A stretch of DNA of 63,309 nt, the filler included, from Folioceros fuciformis (taxonomy: Eukaryota): NCBI GenBank assembly GCA_049999805.1. It is 5 parts of 4 records of this genome, joined end to end, with 100 filler letters (N's around TTAATTAATTAA, not from the genome) between each part and the next. Parts side by side here need not be neighbours in the genome. Positions count along the whole stretch, not along the records: positions 1 to 22,150 come from JBNGIO010006379.1; 4 more parts are not named here. One strand, given 5' to 3'. The notes beneath the pieces were generated by a model. That model saw only the letters and a program-made list of their open reading frames with translations, made no database searches and was not told where the DNA came from. A program made the position numbers and the translations under genes. This document shows positions 8,241-63,175 of the stretch, piece by piece. The stretch's first letter is position 1. Each line of letters starts with the position of its first letter.

Positions 8241-9208
8241 TGCCAGGCCGGCTGCTGGGACGCGCACTCTCCGCTGCAACAGCTCACGATCGCAAATGCC
8301 GAAATAAACTTCGCTGTGAATTGCACTGAGAAGACATTACGGCAAATGCTGAAATAAGCTTTGCCGTCGCAGGGCACGAATCGCAAGGACAACGTATACA
8401 CATGGGGTGCAACAATTTCAATAAACTGGTCCTTCTGCAGTTACTCTCTGCGACTGTGTCACGACCAGATCCGTGGTCCCCTGCTTTCATACAACGCCTG
8501 CGATGGGCCTCTCTCGAAATTTTAGCTCATGTTGGTGAAGATGTTGCGAGGTAAGTTCCTGCGTTGTGTGTAGATGGAGCAGCACTCCAGTGGGCATGTG
8601 ATTCCAGCCAGCAGCGTCCACACGAGAATGCAGAGGGAGCATCTAGTTTAACTCGGTCCTGAATCCTTTGTGCTGTTTCACAACACAGAGCGTCATTCTG
8701 GAGACAGGACCATCATTCCGAGAGAATGTGGTTACGATTCAAGCTTCAAGCGCGTTCTGTCCTTGCCATCACCCACATGTTCCAGAGACCGTGGGCATCG
8801 GAGAGCATGCCAGTGATGGTGGGCATGGGAGAACGTGGAAGAGAATGATGGGCTTCGGCCGGTATGAATCATCCGTGCCCGGCGTCAGACTTGCTCTTGG
8901 ATCCCTCTCTTCTGGATTCGGACAAGTCTACCACGACCCACGTCTCCACCCGCATCCTCCTCGCTGCCTCCGTTCATCTTCAGACAATCGTCACCAGCCT
9001 GCTAGTACCAATTTTGTTTCCCATTTCTGCCTCTAGGACCGCACCCACAACCACCTCCAAGTGAGGACGGTAATATGCGCAAAGCTTCGGGACGCATGTG
9101 TGTTGATTTTGGAGGCTGCGGTATCGGAGGTATGGTGTGGTGGCAGTAACCGGGCATTCGGACTTTGTTTGGTGTGAAGGCTCAAATTTCGACGGCGGGC
9201 CCTAAAAG

Positions 9209-12112
9209 ATGGCCACAGTATGGCAACCGGACCGGGTGTGGAGGCAAGGAATTGGTGTGTGTACAGAGATTCCACGAGGAGCTCCTGGTCACCACATCTT
9301 AGAGAGTCAACTCCTGTCAAACAGAGCCTCCAGGTGCAGCACTGTAAGGAGCCCAGCACTTCCTCTTTCGAGAAAATGTGTGGGTGGGGACGAGTTTTCC
9401 AGCGATGGTCGTTGCCAGGAGCAGGAGCGCTTGTGGCAACAGCTTTTTCTTGACCCTGGCATGTGGTGGGACAACAGACGAGCTAAGAAGAGCTCCCGTT
9501 CGCCTGACTTCCGGCGTAAGGGTTCTGGCGAGGTGCTGTGGTTGAACGACACGTTCAAGCCAGCTTGGGTTGATGAGCTGCTCATTTCCTTGGATGTACA
9601 AATGGGTCATTGTCACTCTCCTTCCGAGTCCAGTTCTCCGGATGAGCCTGAATCTGGCAGGCGTGCAGGATCAGAAGTGGGCGTTGTCATGGCCGTGAAC
9701 ACGTTATGCCAGCAGGGGAAGCTTTGTGAGGCAGTCAGAGTCCTGGAATCTCTGACGCAAACAGACTCTGCTGTTTCTCAATCTCTGATCTGCAATGTGC
9801 TGAAATTGTGTACCTCTAAGAAGGATTTGGTTGTGGGGCGACGACTTCATGATGTCATCGTCAAACTTGGGTACGAGTCGAATGCTTACGTGGGGAATCA
9901 CGTCTTGCGCATGTATGCATGTCGGGGTAGGCTACAGGAGGCCATGGATGTGTTCACCAGGATAGGCAGGCCAGATGTGATCACGTGGGGTTCTATCATC
10001 TCTGCGCATGCTAAACATGGGAAACCCAATGAGGCCATACTACTGTACCATGAAATGCGTAAGTCAGGAGTGAAGGCTAATGGCCACGTCTTTGTAGCTG
10101 CCCTTCAAGCTTGTGCACTTGCCGTCGACTTGGAATCTGGAAGAAAAGTGCACTATGATGCGTTGCACAGTGGCATTCCCACTAACTTGTTTGTTGCCAA
10201 CTGCCTAGTGGACATGTATGCCAAATGTGGCAAACTGGAAGATGCACGCAAATGTTTTGACAGCATGGCCTTAAAGGATGTTGTGACATGGAATGCGCTG
10301 ATATCTGGGTATGCACAGCAGGGACTGGGCCAGGAGGCTCTTGTTCTGTATGGACAAATGGAGGAAGAGGTCTCCATTTTGGCTAACCATGTTACGTTCG
10401 CTTCTCTTATGAAGGCCTGTGGAAGCACTGGCGCCTTACAAAAGGGCAGGCAGCTGCACTCTCAGATTTTGAAAAGAGGACTGCTAGATGACATGCTGGT
10501 GGGCACCTGCCTGGTGGACATGTACGCAAAATGTGGTGAACTGGAAGATGCACGCCAGGTTTTTGACAGCATGGCCTCAAAGGATGTAGTGACATGGACA
10601 GCGCTGATTGCTGGGTATGCACAGCATGGACTCGGCCAAGAGGCGCTTGTTTTGTATGCAGAAATGGAACAAGAGGGCCTCATTTTGGCTAATCATGTTA
10701 CGTGTGCTTGCCTTCTGAAGGCCTGTGCAAGCACTGGAGCTTTGCAGAAGGGCAGGCAGCTGCACTTGCAGATTGTTGAAAGAGGCCTGCTGGATGATGT
10801 AGTGGTTGGCAATTGCCTAGTGGACATGTATGCAAAGTGTGGTGAGCTTGAGGACGCACGTCAGGTTTTTGACACCATGGACACCAAGGATGTGGTGACA
10901 TGGACCACTCTGATTGCCGGGTATACTGAGCAAGGTCTCAGCCAAGAGGCGCTTGTTGTGTATGAACAAATGGAGCAGGAGGGCCACATTTTGGCTAACG
11001 ATGTTACTTTTGTGTGCCTCGTGAGGGCCTGTGCAAGCACCTGTTCCTTACAGAAAGGCAGGCAGCTGCACTCACAGATTGTTGACAGAGGCTTGCTGGA
11101 CAACGAAGTTTTGGGCAACTGTCTGGTGGACATGTATGCAAAATGTGGTGAACTGGATGATGCACGCAGGGTTTTTGACAGCTTGAATACGAAGGGTGTG
11201 GTAACCTGGACCGCCCTAATATCTGGCTATGGTGCTTGTGACGAAGGTCACATGGCCCTAGCTTGTTTCGAGGAGATGTTAGTGGCCGGCATTCAGCCTG
11301 ATGATGCTACTTTTACTTGCCTTTTATCAGCATGCAGTCATGGGGGACTGGTTCACGAGGGTCGAAAGCTCTTCGATTCCATGCCTCAACAGCATGGCAT
11401 CAAACCTACTATCGAACACTTCATTTGCATGATTGATCTTCTTGGGCGTGCAGGCCATGTAGATGAGGCAGAGAAGATTCTACTGTCATGCGAGGCCCAA
11501 AGTAACATTGTGGGCTTGACATCTTTATTGAATGCCTGCAAAAGTCACGGGGACATAGAGAGGGCGGTCTGGTGTTTCGAAAGAATTGTTAAGCTGGACC
11601 CCCAAGAGGCGACCGCATATGTGCTCGTGGCCAACGCCTACGCAGACGCAGGTATGTGGGCCGATGTGGAGAGGATTGAAACACTGAGAAGGGCAGCAGG
11701 AGCTAACAAGAAACCTGCCGTGGCAACCATTGAGGTGCACAAGCAAGTGCATAGATTTGTGGTGGGAGAAAGGAGAGAGGATGTTGGGCTGAAGGCAGAG
11801 AGCACAAATGCACGTGTGAAGCAGGAAGGAGGCCACGTACCTCACACGAATTTGGTGTTGAAGCCACTGTCAGAAAAGGAGAAGGAAGACGCACTTTGTG
11901 GGCATGCTGAGAAGCTAGCTCTGGCTTTTGGCCTCTTGAACACTCCCAGTGGGACACCCCTGGTGGTAACGAAGAACCTACGCATGTGCAGTGATTGTCA
12001 CGGATCCACAGAGATCATGTCAAGGATTGAGCAGCGAAGCATCGTTGTCAGGGATGGGTACCGGGTTCACCGATTCGCAAATGGCTGCTGCAGCTGCAAG
12101 GCTCGACCGTGA
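9209..12112 (+). CDS. PLS-class PPR protein with N-terminal OSB/PDF-like motif and C-terminal DYW:KP (GRP-type) deaminase-like domain; candidate organellar U-to-C editing factor
   Basis: Intronless 967-aa ORF with L-S-P triplets (LVDMYAKCG..DA..VFD.M..KDVVTW), P2-L2-S2, E motifs, KKPAVATIEV, HAEKLA, KNLRMCSDCH and terminal CSCKARP. Confidence 0.95.
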   Translation: MATVWQPDRVWRQGIGVCTEIPRGAPGHHILESQLLSNRASRCSTVRSPALPLSRKCVGGDEFSSDGRCQEQERLWQQLFLDPGMWWDNRRAKKSSRSPDFRRKGSGEVLWLNDTFKPAWVDELLISLDVQMGHCHSPSESSSPDEPESGRRAGSEVGVVMAVNTLCQQGKLCEAVRVLESLTQTDSAVSQSLICNVLKLCTSKKDLVVGRRLHDVIVKLGYESNAYVGNHVLRMYACRGRLQEAMDVFTRIGRPDVITWGSIISAHAKHGKPNEAILLYHEMRKSGVKANGHVFVAALQACALAVDLESGRKVHYDALHSGIPTNLFVANCLVDMYAKCGKLEDARKCFDSMALKDVVTWNALISGYAQQGLGQEALVLYGQMEEEVSILANHVTFASLMKACGSTGALQKGRQLHSQILKRGLLDDMLVGTCLVDMYAKCGELEDARQVFDSMASKDVVTWTALIAGYAQHGLGQEALVLYAEMEQEGLILANHVTCACLLKACASTGALQKGRQLHLQIVERGLLDDVVVGNCLVDMYAKCGELEDARQVFDTMDTKDVVTWTTLIAGYTEQGLSQEALVVYEQMEQEGHILANDVTFVCLVRACASTCSLQKGRQLHSQIVDRGLLDNEVLGNCLVDMYAKCGELDDARRVFDSLNTKGVVTWTALISGYGACDEGHMALACFEEMLVAGIQPDDATFTCLLSACSHGGLVHEGRKLFDSMPQQHGIKPTIEHFICMIDLLGRAGHVDEAEKILLSCEAQSNIVGLTSLLNACKSHGDIERAVWCFERIVKLDPQEATAYVLVANAYADAGMWADVERIETLRRAAGANKKPAVATIEVHKQVHRFVVGERREDVGLKAESTNARVKQEGGHVPHTNLVLKPLSEKEKEDALCGHAEKLALAFGLLNTPSGTPLVVTKNLRMCSDCHGSTEIMSRIEQRSIVVRDGYRVHRFANGCCSCKARP

Positions 12113-12542
12113 CAACAAAAGCAAGAAGTCTTTATCAAGTGGAGACTACCACACCAGGGTTCAAGCTACTATTAGAAGCAAACTCGCAACTACATGAAAG
12201 AATGACCTAGCTATGGAAATTGGAAGATCCATTGTATGCGATACGCTTGATGCGTCAAGGAGTGGATGAATTAGTACTTTGATGAGAAGAGGGCGGAGCA
12301 TGATAATTTAGGCAACTAGTTGGGCGTGAGGGTGGAATAGGAATATTACTTAGAAAGGAAAGTTGGCTGCAACCTCAAGCCTAGGTGGGAAGGCCTCTTC
12401 TAATTAAGGAAATCCTGAAATAAGTGCCCATGTTTAAATGCGCCCTTTATGCCTTTCCGAAGTAGAGGTCATGAATACCTCTTACCTTATCAAATATAGA
12501 TAAATATCTCTTACCTTATTAAATAGGGTGCTTAGAGTTACA

Positions 12543-12636
12543 GTAAAAGCATGTATTGTGTAAAAGCATGTATTGTGACGCTTGGGATAGGACTTGTTGT
12601 TAGGATAGGACTTGTTGTTAGGATAGGACTTGTTGA
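12543..12636. repeat. Short tandem repeats (TAAAAGCATGTATTGTG x2; GGATAGGACTTGTTGTTA x3)
   Basis: Direct repeats visible in AT-rich intergenic DNA. Confidence 0.8.
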
Positions 12637-12914
12637 GTTTGGGCTATAAATAGGCATTATGTAGTCCAAGCTTATTATTCTTGTTGTTCTCACATCAAGT
12701 GACCAATCTTCTCACATTTACTGCTCATTGATCTTCATACTTGTTGTTATCACATTTCTGCTATTCACGTGGGCATCATGTCACTTCACTTTCATTTCAA
12801 TCTTAGATGAAATCATTGCATGTGTCTAACTTCATGGACCTAATCTTTTCTCCTCATGTGATTAGGTTAAGCTATTAAACAACGACAACCATAGAACACA
12901 ATCAATCAACAAAC

Positions 12915-22250: not shown

Positions 22251-22895
22251 CGGCGTTGCCTGCCTGGCATGTTGTCTCAATTCGGGGTTCGCCGTGCCGC
22301 AGTGGCGCCGTCGTGCGCCTCTTCGCCGACGGTGGCGGCAATTGGAAGGTAAAGAATGTTCTTCAACTGGCGCTGTTGCTGCCGCGCTCTGCTTGCCATG
22401 GCAGAGCTGGTGTGGTGTGGTTTGCTGCCTGGCATGCGATGATGTTTGCCTGGTTTCAGTGTTTTGGTACCGGTGCACCCCTCAATGGCAGAGAGCTGTT
22501 TGCTTTGCTGTGGCAGGCTGGGCCCCGTAAGGGGCCTAGGATTTAAGTGACACGTGCTTGGAGGCAGCTTGGTGCGTGAGCAACTCAGCACACGGCATGA
22601 ACGTCTGAGGTACCGTGTGGTTCTGTCATTTATATGATTTGGAAGGTTGGGTAGGGCGTGGAAGAAGGGTAGGATTTGGAGAGGAAAGAAAGTTTCTTTT
22701 TCGTATATGAGTGTTCTCGTTTGCGGTTATGTGTTCACGACAGCAATGTAATTGATCCGTTGTTTGTGTTCTCCAGCGCGAGAGCTGGTACAAGTACTTC
22801 ATTGCAGTTGTCGCTCAACAGCGCGACAGAAGAGACTGGTGCGATGCGTCTGCGCTTGGTGTAGCCCTTCTGCACCTTTGGTTCAATCGGAGTTT

Positions 22896-25800
22896 ATGAC
22901 TGTGCCGTGGGGACGTGGCGCAGGAACAGGTTCTTCGGCCAATATGTGGTTTTACGTCGCCGAGAACGGCGGCTCGTTCGAGTCGGAGTTCTCGGGTGAC
23001 ACTGCCGTGTATCGGGTGAAATCCTGGCTCGTCAGTCGCACCGGAATCGCAGTGGCTCATCAGATCCTTATGTGTGGCGTTGCTCGCTTGGATTCGCGGA
23101 AGACTCTGGCCTATTACGGTCTTCCTGATGATTCACGCCCTGTCGTGTTGTACAGTAAGCAACGGCTCGTTCCGAATGCCCCGCCTCCACCACCGGAAGA
23201 GGTGGAGAGAGATGATCCTCATCTGCCTTCGCCTTTATCGGCAACATCTAGTCACCCTTTGGATGATTGTCCTGATCCTGCCCTGAAGGTCCTACGTCAG
23301 TATGAAAGTCAGTTCACGCATCATCTTCACGAGGCGGACGCTTTTTTGGCTGCTAGCACATCAACGTTGGAAGTTTGCAAAAGGCTGCTCATGGAAATTC
23401 AGGTGCAGGAATTTGCGCTGGGTACTGGCCTGAAGAGCCTGCAACAATACGATCCGCAGTTCAATGAATTCATCAACGCCTACAACTGGCAATATGACCA
23501 ACACTCCGAGATTTTGCGGAATCTGGACAGGGACTTAAGAAGACTCCAGGCTTGTAAGCTTCATCCTGCTCTAAGATCAGAGGGGTGCACCACTTTGCGT
23601 GATTGCCTCAATGAAGCAACAGTCCAGGAAGCGGTAGAGGAATGTAAGCCTTATCTTCGACACATTTACGCAAAGGGTATGGAGTGGAAAAGCAACTTAG
23701 CAGATTTGCAGCAGACGGTGCAGGAGCTCCTAGAGCTTCAACCTGTGGTTGATGTGCGCTCCCTAGAAGCTCAAATGGAACAATATTCTTCTCTCCTAGT
23801 GGAACAGTCGAGCATACGACAGACCCTCAGGTTCTTCACTGGTGCCCTAGCTGTCTTGCCTTTTTCCTTGTGGTCACGGTGTCCTAGGTCTTGCTTATGT
23901 GCAATTTCGTTCGCAGTGATTGAAGGATGACTGCGTGCGTTTCTAGCTCTCCACTGAATCGTGCTACATTGTTGTGTTTGTCTCATCTGCAGTAAGGACG
24001 TAAAGACTATAAAGAATTTTGTAGAAGAGCGAAGTTCCAGCCAATTTTCTTCTCAATGGTCTTACGATGGGGCTTCCAATCGTAACTATATCAGACCACA
24101 TGATGCACTGTCTGCCTATCGACCTATGCTTGAAATTCATAAGGCCAAATTGCTTCCAAGAATGTCAACGTTGGATTCTCAATTTGCACAGTTTTTGGAG
24201 CACTGCGTGAGGTGTAAGAACTCTATGAGCCTTTGTGTTCACACCCGCATGCAAGGTGTAGCAGCTGTGCAGGCGATCATCAAGGGCATGTTGTCTGAGC
24301 TGCCTGTCTACAGAGAGGTAATGAGCGAGGGGCAGAATATGTTTCAGAGACTGGAAATGGTGCGGAAGGTGGGATTATGTTATAAAGCTTGTCTAGCTGA
24401 GGTAGTACGGAGGGAAAACTCCAAGAAATTATATATGGGTCAGGGGGGTCAGTTAGCTGAGAAGATGGCCCGGACCAGGGCGACAGAGGTGGCCCGACGT
24501 GATGCATTTCTCAAGACTCACGGTAAATCCCTTACTCCGGAGATATTACAGAGGATGGGTCTCTTTGAGAACCCCAGTCAATGCGTTGTAAATATTGCTC
24601 CTTATGATGAGCATTTGCTTAAGATAGATGTAGCTGATATTGACAAGTACTCCCCAGAGCACTTGAGGGGTTTATATCGTAGTGAGCTCCAGACTGCAGG
24701 CTACGGGGAAGAACAGCAGCGAGGGGAGTCTAGGGATAACAATGGTGTACATACAGAAGATGATGGTAGCATTGATGAGATAGCTGGTACAAGCCGATTG
24801 GAGGTGGAGAACACGTTTCTAAAATCTCAGCTTGCTGCTGCTGTGGCGATCATCTGCAGCCTGGATCCAGAGATGGAGGTCGAGGACGTTGGACAAGGCA
24901 AGGAGTTCGGTGATAACGCTGACAATTTAGTGGTGAGTAGCAGACTTGCTTTTCGGAAAACCACAGAGGCTCTGAGGTTGAAGGACGATTACGTGCAGCT
25001 TCTTAAACGCCAACTAGCCGTAAAAGAGGCGCAGTGCTTGTCCTACGAGAAGCGGATAAAAGACCTGGAAGCATGTAATCAGCACTTGTACATAGAAAAC
25101 CTCAAACCTTTTCCTGAAGAGCAGGGCCATCCTGTAGCAGGCGGTGAGTGTGCAGACTCAGATGTCTCTGAAGTCACAGGGCTAGGGAGGATGGGTACAG
25201 CCCCTGAGCCAATGGATGAAGGTGTGAGCAGTGAGGTTGAGTGTGGCCAAAGGCAACTTGGCCCATCAAGTACAGTGGAACATCCTTGCACCCCAGCTGA
25301 GCAGACTGGCCCCGGATGGGAAGGAGATACGACAATGTGTGACGTGTCTGCCGCCGGACTTGCTGTTGATGCTGCCATGGTTGATGGTCGGAAGGAGAAT
25401 GCAGACACCAGTGAAAATTGGGTGTCAGACAGATGTGCTGACTCTACAGAGCAGGCCAATGTAGGTAGATGTCCTGAGCTGCTCCTTCCCAAATTTACAG
25501 GAGAGACAGCAGAATGTGGAGGGGGGTTACAAGCACCCGTATCCCCAGCCGTGGAGAGGGTCACAGCTGCTCCAGAGGCAGCGAACGAGGCAGATGACCA
25601 GTTGGCATCTTTGCAGTCTGCACTGTTTGATAAAACGAGGCAGTGTGAATTGGCAGAAGTCCGGATCAAGTCAGCGGAAGACGCTGCAGATCGCCTTCGT
25701 GCGGAGCTGGATCGCCTCCACGCAGAGTTGGAAAGAAATACTGCACATGTTAATGAATGCCAGGTATGCTTGAAATGGTATGCTTTGTCTTCGTGGTTAC

Positions 25801-27162
25801 AGGTGATGGACTGATAAAATGCCTTGAATTGAATTTGTCGAAGGAAAACTGTGCTCACTTGGAGAATCGGCTACACGATGCACTACAAGAAGCAAGAACA
25901 CACCGTTGTGCCGCTGAGCGACGAGCTGCTGAGTATCAGTCTCTCCGTGCTTCAAGTGTAAGGCTCTGTGGTCTAATGGAAAGACTGAGGAACTGTATCT
26001 CTGCTACTGGAGGGGCAAATGTGTTTACAGAATCTCTACGGGCACTTGCTATATCTGTTTCAAGGTGAATTTGCTGAAAACCCTCTCATTCTCTGAACTT
26101 GCAGAACAAGCATAGGAAGTTGTTGGCTGACCTTGATTTCTGGTGTTGGCAGTACCAGTGATGCCGGTGATGATGCAGCTGAGTTTCGTGCATCCATCAG
26201 GGTTTTAGCAGATAAAGTGGGAACTCTTGCTCAGCAACGAGCTGAGTTGCTGGAGCGTTGCAGCATTGCAGAGAGTGCGCAAACTGGTCTGAAGAAAGAC
26301 CTGGAGGAAAAGTCTGAGTTGTTGAAGAATTTCTATGCTAAGCGGAAGGCGGAGAAGCAGGTACTCAATCAGCCATTGTTTTCAGATTTTTCACCTTAAG
26401 AGCCTGAAGAGTACCTTCTCCCTTTTACATCTACCCCTTGTCAACCGTTTGGCTTTTATACAGACATGGGTCCCATCCCAGGACCGGTTGAGGAATTTTA
26501 CCTGATTGTGTGGTTTTCATCCTCCCGTTGATTAGTACCTTATTTTCCCCCTTTTCTGTTTTAGTAAATTTCAGACTGGCGTCCTTCCCACCGAGATTCT
26601 TAACTGTCGATCGGATCGAGACATGGGGTTTGTCCTTGTATATTAGCTTTTCTGTTTCCTACAGGCTGTCCTACTCAAAGTGGACTTTCTTATCATGCCG
26701 CCTTTGTGGGGTCCTGGATCAAGAGTTGAATAACTGTTGAAGACTTTTCATGCTTATCATGTGATAGTCAATGCGTTTGCATGGCAGGCAAGCAAGGAGA
26801 AGATATGCTTCACACGCTTCAATGTGCATGAGCTTGCGGTGTTTATGCCGAATGCTGATGGTCATTACGAGGCTATAAATGTGAACTGTCCAAACTACTA
26901 CTTGTCTGACGAATCTATTGCATTGTTTTTGGAGCATCCTCCAAATTCACAACAGTATATTGTGGGTCAAATAGTACACATTGACCGGAATATGGCAAGG
27001 CCACCACCTGACGGTGGTTGTCCTCCATCTGGGAATGGGAGTAGCAGTGAGGCAATCACAGGAGGGGTTCCGAAATGTCGCACTAACCCTTATGGCTTAC
27101 CCATTGGAACAGAATATTGTGTTGTTACGGTGGCCATGGCTCAGATTTCACTTGTGCCTTGA
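22896..27162 (+). CDS. ATG11: Autophagy-related protein 11; exons about 22896-23830, 23993-25763, 25844-26064, 26153-26360, 26788-27162
   Basis: N-terminal YVAENGGSFE ubiquitin-like region, HPLDDCPDPALKVL, YKACLAEVVRR, NCAHLEN.LH.A..EARTH.CAA.RRA.EY, and C-terminal KEKICFTRFNVHELAVF..NCPNYYLSDES..NPYGLPIGTEYCVVTVAM. Confidence 0.95.
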
Positions 27163-57793: not shown

Positions 57794-59168
57794 ATGGCCA
57801 ATGTGGAGCAAATGGTCGTCTACGACGTAGCCCTTGCCACACAAAGTGTAGTTTGAGACTTGTTTTATTTACTGAATTACTTTGAGGGGAGTAATGATGT
57901 TGCCATCACCGATTGCGGGCTATCTTTAAGATATGTGAGCATGGATGACCAAAGACTTCTAGATGATGCTCTTGATAACACTGTTCTTTCATGTCAACAA
58001 TTGGAGGCTGCTCTTGCAATTGCGGCCCGCACACGACAATTACCAAGGGGATTTCTAACGGGCATTCAATTATCAACGTACTATGTGAAACCCCGAGTAC
58101 AGGACATGTGGACTTTATACCTTCAAGTGGCACAAGAGGATCCAAAAAGGTTTGCCCGTTTCTATGGATTCCCATGGGCAACCTTTACGTACATTTGCAA
58201 TCTAGTTCATGACGCTGTTGACCCGACTCCAGTTCCTGGATTTGTGAACATCCTCGGGAGGATTATCTGTGTGCATAAACAAGTTCCCATTGCCTTAAGG
58301 AGACTGGCCACAGGTGATAGCTTTGTCTCTTTAGGTGACAGCTTCGGAGTGGGACAGTCAATTGCCTGCACAATTACTCACCGTTTTGTCAAAGCAATCA
58401 TATAGAAGGCTAGGCATCACCTTGCCTGGCCATCAACAGGTCAAATTGGAGGAAGTGAAGGCAGGATTCTTTGAACGACATGGCTTCATGGATTGTTGTG
58501 GTGCCATCGATGTGACCCATTTTCGGTTGGAACTGCCTGTAGGAGAAAACCAATGGGAGTATCGAGGAAGATACAAGGATCTCACAGTCGCAATGCAAGG
58601 TATCGTAGGCCCCAATAAGAAGTTCTTAGACGTAGTAACAGGCTGGCCAGGAGCTGCAAATGATACGAGAATTCTATACAACTCAGAGGTATATCACCAA
58701 GCCAATGCAGGTGCACGGCTGAATGGACCATCCATGCTCGTGGATAACGAGGAAGTGCGAGAGTATATCATCGGAGATGTTGGCTACCCTTTGCTTCCAT
58801 GGTTGATCATCCCCTTTCCTGGTCAAGGTTTGATGGCAGACAAAGAGTCTTTTGACTTCAAGCTATCCTCTTCTCGTATGGTCGTTGAGGACGCTTTCGG
58901 AGCACTGAAAAAGGTTTGGCGGATACTAGGTAGGAGGGTGTGGCGAGGCAACATCGACTACTTCAATGCGTTGACTTATGCATGTGTGCTACTGCACAAC
59001 ATTAGGATAGATCGTGGTGATGAGATAGATCCAAGAATATTGGCAGGCGAGGAGGACGACGAAGAAGATGGCATGCATCAAAACTTCATGGCAACTGGGC
59101 CCGAGAGTGCCGAAGGTCACTGGTTGAGAGACATCTTGATGCACATGTTATGGAGGAATGAGATGAAC
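57794..59168 (+). mobile_element. PIF/Harbinger-type DDE transposase (HARBI1/ALP1-like), disrupted
   Basis: HTH region IALRRLATGDSFVSLGDSFGVGQS, then GAIDVTH, GWPGAANDTRIL, IIGDVGYPLLPWLIIPF, SRMVVEDAFGALK and ACVLLHN. In-frame TGA at 57854 and a frameshift near 58400-58430. Truncated by the gap. Confidence 0.92.
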
Positions 59169-59268
59169 NNNNNNNNNNNNNNNNNNNNNNNNNNNNNNNN
59201 NNNNNNNNNNNNTTAATTAATTAANNNNNNNNNNNNNNNNNNNNNNNNNNNNNNNNNNNNNNNNNNNN

Positions 59269-62200
59269 GTCAGCTTCAGCCCTGTGGCTAGAGGAGTGGC
59301 ACATCCATTCGCATTGTCAAGACTGAATTTCTTCAAACAATCTCTGACGTACTTATACTGCGAAATAGAGAGCCTCCTTGCCTTCCTGTCTCTTGCTATC
59401 TCAATGCCGAGGCACCAGGTAAGTTCTCCTAACTCAGTCATTTCGAACTCTCTTTTAAGCAACAACTTCACCTTCTGCATCAAGCTACCCTTTCCAGTGG
59501 TTGCAGCAAGGATTAAATCATCTACATATAGCAGAAGAATCAGGAAATTCTTGCCCTCAGTCATCACATACAGCCCCGGGTCTGCATCACCTTGATTGAA
59601 GCCCATCTGCTTCAGATTAGTGTCTATCCGCTGGTTCCAGGCTCTAGGACTTTGTTTAAGTCCATACAAAGTTTTCTTTAGCTTGCACACTAATTGCTCT
59701 ATCCTTGGCTTTACATAACCCTCAAGTTGCTCCATATACAAGTCTTCTTCGAGGGTTCCATGTAAGAAAGCAGTTTTAACGTCCATCTGCTCTAAATCCA
59801 GGTCAAGATGTGCAGCTATGGCTAAAACCATCCGAAGGGTTGCGAATATGACAACTGGAGCAAAAGTGTCTGAGAAATCTATGCCAGGAATCTGTGAGAA
59901 CCCTCTCGCTACCAGTCTAGCCTTGTAGCGTTCAATGCTGCCATCAGCTTTCATCTTCCGGTGAAGACCCACTTGCACGAGATGGGTTTTCTGCCCTTAG
60001 GTAATTCCTCTAAGGTCCAAGTGCCATTCTTGATTACAGATGCGTACTCATCCTCTACAGCTTTCTTCCAATGTTTTGCCTCAGGTCCTGAATACGCTTG
60101 CTGCATAGAGACTGGTTCAGCAGAATCCGAGGTGGTTGCCTGCATGGCGTGAACAAACCATGTGGAAGGTGTTACTTCATCAGCTAGCTGTCCACCTTCG
60201 CTGTCCACCTCAGCAGATGCTGATGCCCCCACTGTGGGCACTTCCGAGGTAACTGCACCACCAACATCTGCCCTAGTTCCCTTTAACTTCTGGGCCCTGG
60301 ACACCTTTGCAGGCCTCCAGTCTTCCATTTCAAGGGGAGGCTCCTTCCAAGGCCTGTTCCTCTCACGCAAATTATATCTACCCCGCTCTTGTGAAACAGG
60401 TACATGAGCTCTGGGTGCCTGCGCTATGTGCTCTGCTGCATCCAGTCCTTCTACATATGTATCAGCTAATACATCATCATCCTCAACCGTAGCATCAATG
60501 TCATAGCCAGCATCTTCCTGGCCAGACTAATCAAAGTGTGACAACATCAAGCTGGTCTACGTCAGCATGGCTCAGCATGGGTGCCCCTCCGTCTGTATCA
60601 TCCTCGTCAGGCTCCTCTACTGGCTCAGATAAGTCAATCTCACTTCTATCTAGCTCCACACGAGCAGTAGGAGGATGCATCACATACTGTTCATCGAAAA
60701 TCACACTTCGTGCATGACTGACAATGCATGTCACAGGGTCATACAGCTTGTACGCTTTTATGCCATCAGTATAGCCTACAAAGACTAACTTATTTGCCCT
60801 GTCATGCAGCTTCGATGTTCTCTTCGGCTTGGGAACAAACGCATATGTGGGAGCACCGAAAATGCAGAGATGTCGGACTGTTGGTTTTCGTCCCCACCAG
60901 GCCTCAAATGGCGTCTGGCCAGGTAACACACGAGTAGGCAACTGGTTGAGCAGATAATTTGCAGTGTTCATGGCCTCAACCCAGTATCGTCTAGCTTGCT
61001 TCAGCAGGGCCCGAGCAGTTTCTTGCAAAAGTTGATTTTTCTTTTCTGCTACACCATTGAGCTGGGCTGTGTAGGGAACTGTGAGCTGCCTCGTGATGCC
61101 AAGATCCCGAAAAAATGCTTTAAACTCTCCTGAGATGTACTCCCCACCATTGTCAGATCGGAGGCATCGCAGATTGTGGCCAGTTTGGCGCCCACCCATG
61201 TGCAGGAAATCTTTGAAGTGCTGCAGAGTTTCACTCTTGTGCTTCAAAATATACAGGGTACAGTATCGAGTGAAATCATCGATAAACGTTAGGAAGTATG
61301 CCCCACCACCAATAGAGGGCACTGAGATGGGGCCACAGAGATCCGAATGCACTAGTTCCAGGGGTGTGGAGGCACGATGAGCACCAGTCTTGTCAAAAAT
61401 AGCCTCATGATGTTTCCCATAGATGCAGGACTCACACAACGGTAAGGCCCCCACTTGACCAGGTATCCCGTCAGTATACAAGGAACTGGCCGCCATTGCT
61501 GACAATTTTCTACCATTGGGATGTCCACAGCGCAAATGCCACAACATAGCTATCTCACCAGATGTGAGGTTGGCAAGAATACCAACAATATTCAGCATCG
61601 GCAAATTACTGCCTTCAAGACTCAGCTAGTAAATATCATTCACAGGAAAACCTTCTGCAAGGACGGCATCTGAATGCATACTATCCACAATGAGGCACTT
61701 GTCTCCCTTGAATAATACATTCAGAGTAGCGTCTGCAGTCAGCTTCCTGACAGAGAGTAGATTTTTGGTAACTGCAGGAACATGGAGAACGTCGTGCAGC
61801 ACAAGAGTCTTGCCATGATGCAAATGCAGAGTAACTGTACCCATCCCAACTATGGGTAAGGAGCTCTCATCACCCAGAAGAACAGACTGCACTTCCTTGT
61901 ACTTCTCATACTCACTGAATGAGGTCCTACTGTGAGAGATGTGCGCGGATGCTCCAGAGTCAACAAACCACGCTGCAGTATGGGTCCCAGCCGTGGTCAA
62001 ACAAATTGTAAGTATGACCAGTGGGTTCTTCTTCTTGACAGCTTGTGCAGTGTGCACCTCCGGGGAGCCTGCACCCTCTTTCTTGGGCTCACCAGCTTTC
62101 TTTTTCTGGCAATCACGAGCCCAATGACCTGGTATGCCACACCAATGGCAATTTCCAGCTTTCTTTTTACTTCCTGAGGCTTGTCCAGCAGTATTAGAAC

Positions 62201-63175
62201 CAGGTCTGCTATCCCTGGTTGAGCTCCAGCCTCCACGTCCTCTTTGGTATGGTTTGCCCCGTCCAGCAAACAAGGCCGTCTGACCTCGTTCATGCTGCTT
62301 GCCAGATTTAGAGGACAGCCTCGTGGCTTCCTCCTGCAGCAATGCCCCAACGACACCGTTAAATGTCAAGGGTTCTGCATCAATCTTCAAGGCTTTCGAC
62401 AGCCGGGCCTCCACCTTTGCCAATGCTTGCTGACCAGTGACAAACGGTCCAAAGCTGGGAGGGAGCGAGCTTAGCAACCTGCAACTCGCTTCGTAGTCAG
62501 TGATTTTCACACCCGTAGAGCATAACCTAGCTCGTGCACTTCTAAATCTCCCGATATAGTGCTCCACAGTCTCTCCTTCTGTCATTCTAAGACTGTGGTA
62601 TCTGGCTGATGCAGACATAGATGCAGCCATATCGTGGGAGGCAAACATCAATGCCAAGTGATCCCACATATCCTTCGCTGAATCTCCTGGCCCATCTGAG
62701 GCTTGTCTGATTATTTCGGGACCCAAACCTGACCGGATCAAGTTCCTAGCTCGAATATCCGCCAAAGCCCATACTGGCAGGTCAGCTGAAGTGGCATCAC
62801 TGATGGTTTTGCAGTCTCTCCGCTCACAATATGCCAGAGGTTCTTCTCTTCAAGCGCACCTTGCATGCGCATTACCCATATGTCATATTCAGCTCCAGTC
62901 ACCAAGCGGTCATTTTCCTTAAATCCGCCACTAGTAAGTGACTGCAACGCAGCCAGCATGTCATCTCTAGCTTTCTCTTCATCATCCATGTTGGGGTGAC
63001 TAAACCACGAAGTGTCTCTCTCTGACAGGTTTGTATTCACGGATGCAAGGGTAGAATCTGCATCTGTGCCCCTACTTGACTCACTATCTGACAAATCATC
63101 AACATCTATGATCCCGACTTCTTGCGCTAAATGACGAAGCCAGGCAGGTGTTCTATAGGAGTGACTCTCACTCAT
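59269..63175 (-). mobile_element. Ty1/copia LTR retrotransposon gag-pol (gag, zinc knuckle, protease, integrase, RT), degenerate
   Basis: CHWCGIPGHWARDC, WFVDSGAS, LWHLRCGH, LVHSDLCGP..FIDDFTR..LRSDNGGEY..NGVAE, KARLVARGFSQIPGIDF, QMDVKTAFLHG, LYGLKQSPRAW and LYVDD, in PR-IN-RT order. In-frame TAG at 61626 and frameshifts. Confidence 0.96.

Follow-up and report, generated by a model that had tools for sequence, protein, structure and literature searches.

Why would a protein that appears to be built for editing RNA carry, ahead of its RNA-binding repeats, a motif that binds single-stranded DNA (ssDNA) in other plant proteins? The question is raised by a 63,309-nt stretch of the Folioceros fuciformis genome (assembly GCA_049999805.1; five parts of four records joined end to end, positions 1 to 22,150 from JBNGIO010006379.1), which we refer to as the window. 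At 9209–12112 on the + strand, ORF scan and translation located a single intronless open reading frame (ORF) of 967 codons (stop codon 12110–12112), whose start was set at the first ATG (9209) past an in-frame TAA at 9203–9205. Its product, P0001, is predicted from sequence to be an organelle RNA-editing factor with a PLS-class pentatricopeptide repeat (PPR) array, an E motif and a KP-type DYW deaminase domain. An earlier inspection of the DNA (the original prediction) had noticed a PDF motif of the type found in plant OSB proteins ahead of the PPR array, and this observation is confirmed here. With modest confidence, we read the PDF domain of P0001 as an accessory, sequence-nonspecific binder of single-stranded nucleic acid, whose ligand could be RNA or ssDNA; the interpretation offered earlier is, as a whole, partly supported. 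The parts of the gene are as follows.

9209..12112, + strand: whole ORF of P0001, 967 amino acids, consisting of presequence, PDF domain, linker, PLS-class PPR array, E motif and DYW:KP deaminase.
9209..9394, + strand: N-terminal stretch, residues 1–62, a presumed targeting presequence; AlphaFold2 predicted local distance difference test score (pLDDT) 30–38, unconserved in PPR-fused homologues, with the contigs of relatives diverging before nt 9328.
9401..9604, + strand: full folded PDF domain as modelled, residues 65–132; AlphaFold2 pLDDT 91–96, profile match at residues 70–130.
9431..9583, + strand: motif core of the original prediction, residues 75–125, LW..LF.DP..WWDNR..K....PDF..K......LWL.....P.WV; supported by the profile and by invariant residues.
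9605..9670, + strand: Ser/Pro/Glu-rich linker, residues 133–154, predicted to be flexible from its sequence and from pLDDT below 50 at residues 134–143 and 148–151.
9671..11545, + strand: PLS-class PPR array, residues 155–779; 12 Pfam PPR stretches (PPR_2 5.2e-89), AlphaFold2 helix pairs from residue 155.
11546..11734, + strand: E motif, residues 780–842; Pfam PF20431, positions 1–63 of 63, the end of the envelope overlapping the KP box.
11711..12109, + strand: KP-type DYW deaminase domain, residues 835–967; PF14432 at residues 875–964, KKPAVA box, HAE, CSDCH and the C-terminus CSCKARP.

Proteins of the OSB family are defined by an SSB-like domain and, behind it, one or several motifs of ~50 residues with a Pro-Asp-Phe signature (PMC4166229, PMC6963530, PMC6451138). 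The 51-residue motif of P0001 (LWQQ...DELL) lies just where it had been reported, at residues 75–125 (nt 9431–9583), with 74 residues in front of it and the first PPR helix, modelled from residue 155, behind it. Because Pfam holds no model of the PDF motif, its identity had to be tested with a profile built from scratch. This hidden Markov model (HMM) was made only of 85 motif copies that follow SSB/OB domains in 35 Pfam-SSB proteins, and it matched residues 70–130 of P0001 with 71.6 bits (i-E 1.9e-24, Z=1), compared to a best score of 13.8 bits among 1000 shuffles of residues 66–135. The profile match to OSB PDF motifs, whose absence the original prediction had named as a possible ground for giving it up, is therefore present. 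The other six-frame segments of the window gave nothing above 4.2 bits with the same HMM, leaving one motif copy in the window. The 85 copies were themselves retrieved with the P0001 query; this circularity does not explain the score, because the copies are 40–50% identical to the query, are repeated within their own proteins and are tied to an independent Pfam domain.

With residues 66–135 as the query, phmmer was run exhaustively against 1.84 billion representative proteins and returned 594 relatives at E<=1e-3; 141 of them passed E<=1e-10 and 17 passed E<=1e-30, the best single-copy matches being 50–60% identical over ~60 residues (E down to 2e-15). In an alignment of 24 sequences (A1), 12 columns were invariant (W76, F80, P83, W86, D88, R90, K93, P99, D100, L110, P118 and W120). 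The Pro-Asp-Phe signature of the core corresponds to P99-D100-F101, with the P and D invariant and the F present in at least 90% of these sequences. The consensus derived here, LWkdLf.nP..WWDNR..K.NPk.PDFKHKdtGeaLWl.s..P.WVl.kL, agrees with the PDF pattern given in the original prediction, and every core position of the OSB consensus is kept in P0001 and in the PPR-linked copies. A convergent or chance low-complexity match with no homology to OSB PDF motifs might be argued from the lack of a Pfam model for an independent verdict and from two word-index searches, with the motif alone and with residues 66–135, neither of which gave a scored match. The empty result is due to the index, as the exhaustive scan of the 1.84 billion proteins found 594 relatives; no usable match to the motif came from the ESM Atlas, and PDB sequences gave only chance phmmer matches (E>=0.19). 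Against non-homology stand the identity and E-values of the phmmer matches, the excess of the SSB-linked profile score over every shuffle and the 12 invariant columns; we consider this explanation scarcely credible, and it is refuted as far as the sequence statistics (phmmer scan, SSB-linked profile and shuffles) reach. Judged on them, the homology of the P0001 stretch to OSB-type PDF motifs stands.

The remainder of P0001 belongs to a recognized class. Pfam detected PPR (4.5e-93), E_motif (1.5e-15) and DYW_deaminase (3.1e-32) matches, and 0 families in residues 1–164 at E<=1. In the KP type, Lys-Pro replaces the Pro-Gly of the N-terminal box of the DYW domain (PG type) and the C-terminal triplet is variable (PMC11845758). 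P0001 was assigned to the KP type because its Lys-Pro box (NKKPAVATIEV) and its C-terminus (CSCKARP, with a variable triplet) fit this definition, and it also carries HAE and CSDCH; its C-terminal ARP resembles the hornwort 'GRP' variant of PMC9478123. The KP-type subgroup, which has been associated with U-to-C editing, is described as occurring in hornworts, lycophytes and ferns only (PMC9478123, PMC13386178). A separate upstream gene as the source of the motif was ruled out, as the motif and the PPR array share one open frame. The sequence behind the stop codon, at 12113–12640, showed no poly(A) tract.

The combination recurs in other PPR proteins, including a PG-type editor. Detailed surveys of relatives covered the best 150 of the 594 phmmer matches, and 11 of these 150 were PPR proteins (P0007, P0056, P0092, P0100, P0108, P0115, P0117, P0132, P0136, P0140 and P0150). 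In all 11 the motif, in one to three copies, is N-terminal to the repeats, with a similar spacer of 20–35 residues to the first PPR. The PPR-linked homologues are 28–38% identical to P0001 over the first 364 residues; 13 motif columns are invariant over 13 PPR-linked sequences, while the residues preceding the motif could not be aligned and number only 2–22 in several homologues. The only complete DYW domain among the 11, that of P0132, is of the PG type (KKEPGRTWIEV ... CSCRDYW), indicating that the fusion is not restricted to KP-type proteins. The expected pairing of the motif with KP-type domains was thus borne out in P0001, a KP-type DYW protein with the motif ahead of its PPR array, but not as an exclusive one. 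Three fragments, P0081 (55–60% identical), P0142 and P0149, resemble the N-termini of further PDF-PPR proteins. In a tree of 383 motif copies, the PPR-linked copies required 7 changes compared to a shuffled mean of 14.8, and in a 100-row tree the topology uniting 18 PPR-linked and fragment rows beat the free search by 16.45 log-likelihood units and was not rejected (p-AU 0.752). PPR-linked and SSB-linked copies formed separate clusters in the trees. As the motif trees rest on 69 columns only, a single fusion origin is permitted by them, not proven.

Compared to OSB proteins, P0001 has the same invariant core of ~50 residues (LW, P, WWDNR, K, PDF, K, LWL, P-WV), a motif that is plant organellar by PMC4166229 and PMC6963530. 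OSBs carry one to four C-terminal copies, whereas P0001 has a single N-terminal copy, which is joined not to an SSB/OB-like domain but to an RNA-binding PPR array and a deaminase. Neither the SSB domain PF00436 (Pfam, E<=1) nor a match to a custom OB-region profile, made from the sequences that precede the first motif, was found in P0001. Since it lacks an OB/SSB domain, P0001 is not an OSB and shares the PDF module alone. The best 150 proteins contain 420 motif copies in total, 1–12 in each. In 35 of the 150, Pfam places an SSB domain ahead of the motif copies (22 of the 74 proteins examined at E<=1e-3, and 13 of the 76 for which the cut-off was E<=1e-5), and the custom OB-region profile matches 72 of 151 proteins (the 150 relatives and the unmatched P0001). 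Neither an OB-like region nor PPRs were found in 67 of the 150 relatives, many of which are short fragments. Long tandem PDF arrays occur in P0002 (1160 aa) among others and reach 12 copies in a protein, far above the one to four described for Arabidopsis OSBs in the cited papers. P0052 (1526 aa) combines an OB-like region and three PDF copies with a kinesin motor behind them (Pfam Kinesin 1.8e-86); it is either a true fusion or two adjacent genes merged in the gene model.

The N-terminal part of P0001 was also modelled. AlphaFold2 with the 24-sequence alignment predicted a confident fold for residues 66–135 (pLDDT 92.0, predicted template-modelling score 0.78) made of a helix, three short strands and a helix; the modelled elements are helix 65–81, short strands 86–88, 101–103 and ~109–110, and helix 121–132. 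In a model of residues 1–364 based on the 13 PPR-linked sequences, residues 1–62 had a pLDDT of 30–38 and residues 65–132 of 91–96, residues 134–143 and 148–151 fell below 50, and PPR helix pairs began at residue 155. The order predicted for 65–132, with disorder before it (1–62) and behind it (134–151), suggests an autonomous domain on a flexible tether, and the disordered stretch in front could hold a targeting signal. When the PDF-domain model was compared with the PDB in Foldseek, the best match had E 2.7 and none reached E<=1e-3; among 48,161 chains, VIA-align scored no higher than Z 4.5, with none at 5 or above. This lack of a solved relative does not show the PDF fold to be new.

These models bear on the concern, raised in the original prediction, that the motif is removed with the transit peptide. 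This loss is unlikely, because the motif combines a confident fold with 12–13 residues that are invariant in the PPR-fused homologues, features that the disordered, unconserved stretch in front of it lacks. More broadly, the motif could be a relic outside the working protein, cleaved with the targeting peptide, bypassed by translation starting at Met131 or Met161, or carried by a silent retrocopy. Its position near the N-terminus and the few residues that precede it in several homologues mean that it could overlap a targeting signal, in-frame ATGs do occur at residues 131 and 161, and hornwort PPR families have been reported to expand by retroposition (PMC13386178). However, the frame is open and all core residues of the 71.6-bit motif are intact; the motif is conserved in frame ahead of the PPR arrays of 11 diverged proteins, in which the residues before it are not; and a fold modelled with such confidence is not expected of cleaved presequences. 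We regard the relic as improbable.

Sequence contigs from three public runs (X1, X2 and X3), whose kind, RNA or DNA, could only be guessed, were compared with positions 8400–12700. X1 contigs agreed with the window at 8687–9423 (0 differences), 9496–9846 (1 difference) and 11965–12438 (0 differences), which also argues against a relic as far as a run of guessed kind allows; neither the limits of this cover (8687–12438) nor the uncovered parts were taken as transcript evidence. In each of the three runs, very many short contigs were 90–95% alike over 9264–12143, a range that includes the motif-coding part. A C>A variant at 9483, in the motif region, was carried by 31 contigs in X1, 51 in X2 and 62 in X3, and the most repeated PPR site (10525) was represented by 64, 98 and 111 contigs, respectively. 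These sequences suggest that dozens of paralogs carry the PDF-bearing N-terminus. Joints in X2 and X3 contigs that skip 124, 72 and 352 nt near the motif were considered as introns and rejected; because their ends are non-canonical, each occurs in one contig and none is found in X1, they were read as paralog differences.

The same contigs point to a different 5′ end in the paralogs. Upstream of nt 9328, 17 contigs of X2 and 19 of X3 diverge from the window, and the consensus of their loose ends finishes ...GAAATGGG. It has an in-frame ATG two codons before residue 41, where the window reads AGA GCC. The paralog family may start at this ATG near residue 41, with a presequence of ~36 residues, while the window copy reads on to 9209; its 5′ end may thus be different from, or extended relative to, that of the paralogs. 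The apparent loss of the paralog start codon in the window copy is one further point that a relic would explain.

If the PDF domain is, as we propose, an accessory single-strand binder, an editing factor would have acquired one copy of a module of ~50–65 residues that binds ssDNA in plant OSBs. The domain would fold autonomously and be kept in the mature protein, and ~20 flexible residues would tether it to the N-terminus of the PPR array, which faces the 5′ side of the RNA. PPR arrays bind RNA in parallel, with N-terminal repeats on 5′ nucleotides. Because of this parallel binding, an N-terminally tethered domain can reach either RNA 5′ of the footprint or a nearby molecule, and its nonspecific single-strand grip would add to the sequence-specific grip of the PPR array. 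With RNA just 5′ of the PPR footprint as the ligand, an option that we slightly favour, the domain may raise affinity or keep the site unfolded. With ssDNA of the transcribing nucleoid as the ligand, it may bring the editor to nascent transcripts. The roles suggested in the original prediction, namely tethering to nucleoids or R-loops, keeping the target single-stranded or replacing MORF-type cofactors, are conjectural.

PMC6963530, PMC4166229 and PMC6451138, all with reference to Zaegel 2006, attribute the ssDNA binding of OSB proteins to the PDF motif, which the original prediction had taken as established. In AtOSB1 the PDF motif suffices for ssDNA binding (PMC6963530), and ssDNA is bound by the PDF domains rather than by the OB fold (PMC6451138). 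In the available text of these two papers, ssDNA binding is also the only activity reported for PDF motifs. The domain could instead be a docking or oligomerization module for OSB, nucleoid or other PDF-PPR proteins, building a multi-factor editosome. A small, compact domain that is modelled as autonomous and flexibly tethered is typical of docking modules, the tandem arrays of up to 12 PDF copies per protein and the reported tetrameric state of AtOSB2 (PMC6963530) fit oligomerization, and the dozens of paralogs that seem to carry the domain may share it as a common docking handle. Nevertheless, ssDNA binding is the sole biochemical activity reported for the motif, which is sufficient for it, and its invariant aromatic and basic residues are well suited to stacking on nucleic acids and to contacts with phosphates (the 51-residue core holds 8 aromatic and 9 basic residues). 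Docking therefore appears to us rather unlikely.

Several points weigh against the proposed single-strand binder. OSB1 and OSB2 are reported to prefer ssDNA over dsDNA or RNA (PMC4166229), and this preference weakens the version with RNA as the ligand. Nucleic-acid binding by the PPR-linked domain, and the kind of nucleic acid, are deduced from its resemblance to OSB sequences, and the structure gives no independent hint of such binding because no solved relative was found. The domain is taken to survive import processing at a presequence site that is itself putative. The ATG at 9209 is not common to the paralog contigs, so that the protein start, like the transcription of P0001, is a prediction, and the paralog numbers rest on contig counts that mix paralogs, alleles and errors.

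Neighbouring long ORFs of the window were those of ordinary plant nuclear genes, namely an ATG17-like, a RING, a U-box ARM and two PRISE-like ORFs, a Harbinger-type DDE transposase and a copia element. Two consecutive long ORFs at 22752–25814 (+) match the ATG17-like autophagy domain at profile positions 7–155 and 234–353 and are probably two exons of one ATG11/ATG17-like gene. The PRISE-like Rossmann-fold ORFs at 39292–40479 (−) and 43998–45143 (−) (E 3.9e-27 and 1.1e-22) appear to be a tandem duplicate. The transposase ORF (58335–59216, +) and a Ty1/copia gag-integrase region (60531–62849, −) lie near the 3′ end of the window, which contains 852 N.

Among known editing systems, P0001 is closest in layout to the PPR-DYW:KP proteins, candidate U-to-C factors of hornworts, lycophytes and ferns that include the designer proteins KP1–KP6. 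It shares with them the PLS array, E motif, KP box, HxE and CxxC, and a C-terminus other than DYW, its ARP being close to the hornwort 'GRP' (PMC9478123, PMC11845758). P0001 differs in the PDF domain ahead of the array; the published descriptions, in the text available, are based on the C-terminus and mention no N-terminal accessory domain. Like MORF/RIP, ORRM (RRM) and OZ1 proteins and the RRM-PPR fusions, the PDF domain would add nucleic-acid or protein contacts to a PLS editor; it is unrelated to MORF/RIP, ORRM and OZ1 in sequence and is fused in cis, whereas these helpers act in trans. MORFs are reported to occur only in seed plants (PMC13386178), which makes a cis-acting helper in a KP-bearing lineage plausible, and non-seed plants may use helpers other than MORFs. 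A functional analogy is offered by WHIRLY, an organellar family binding single-stranded DNA and RNA that is tied to the editing machinery in the OsWHY1/TRXz/MORF complex (bioRxiv 10.1101/2024.08.28.610128), although it has another fold, belongs to another family and acts in trans via MORFs.

P0001 joins a known class of editing factor to a known ssDNA-binding module in an architecture for which we found no description. A PDF motif on a PPR protein was not described in the literature searched, which did not extend to Zaegel 2006, Gerke 2020 and Gutmann 2020, where it may be mentioned, and neither 'OSB' nor 'PDF' appears in the main text, supplements aside, of a 2026 survey of editing-factor domain fusions as far as it was available. 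A bolder proposal, which we put forward only tentatively and think doubtful, is that PDF-PPR proteins form an old, unrecognised subclass of PLS editors with one fusion origin, spanning PG (C-to-U) and KP (U-to-C) types and present here in dozens of copies. Its OSB-derived ssDNA-binding domain would couple editing to the transcribing nucleoid or to unfolded nascent RNA, as a counterpart in cis to the MORF-type helpers, which are missing from non-seed plants.

PPR editing factors outside seed plants are thought to act mostly unaided, and little is understood of the way in which U-to-C editors locate their sites and stay on them. If the proposed role is true, the PDF domain would offer a natural add-on for the design of synthetic C-to-U and U-to-C editors, whose affinity or processivity it may increase. 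The editosome would then gain a new accessory element, a conserved and folded single-strand-binding domain of OSB type at the 5′-facing end of the PPR array, and the use of the PDF module would extend beyond DNA maintenance.

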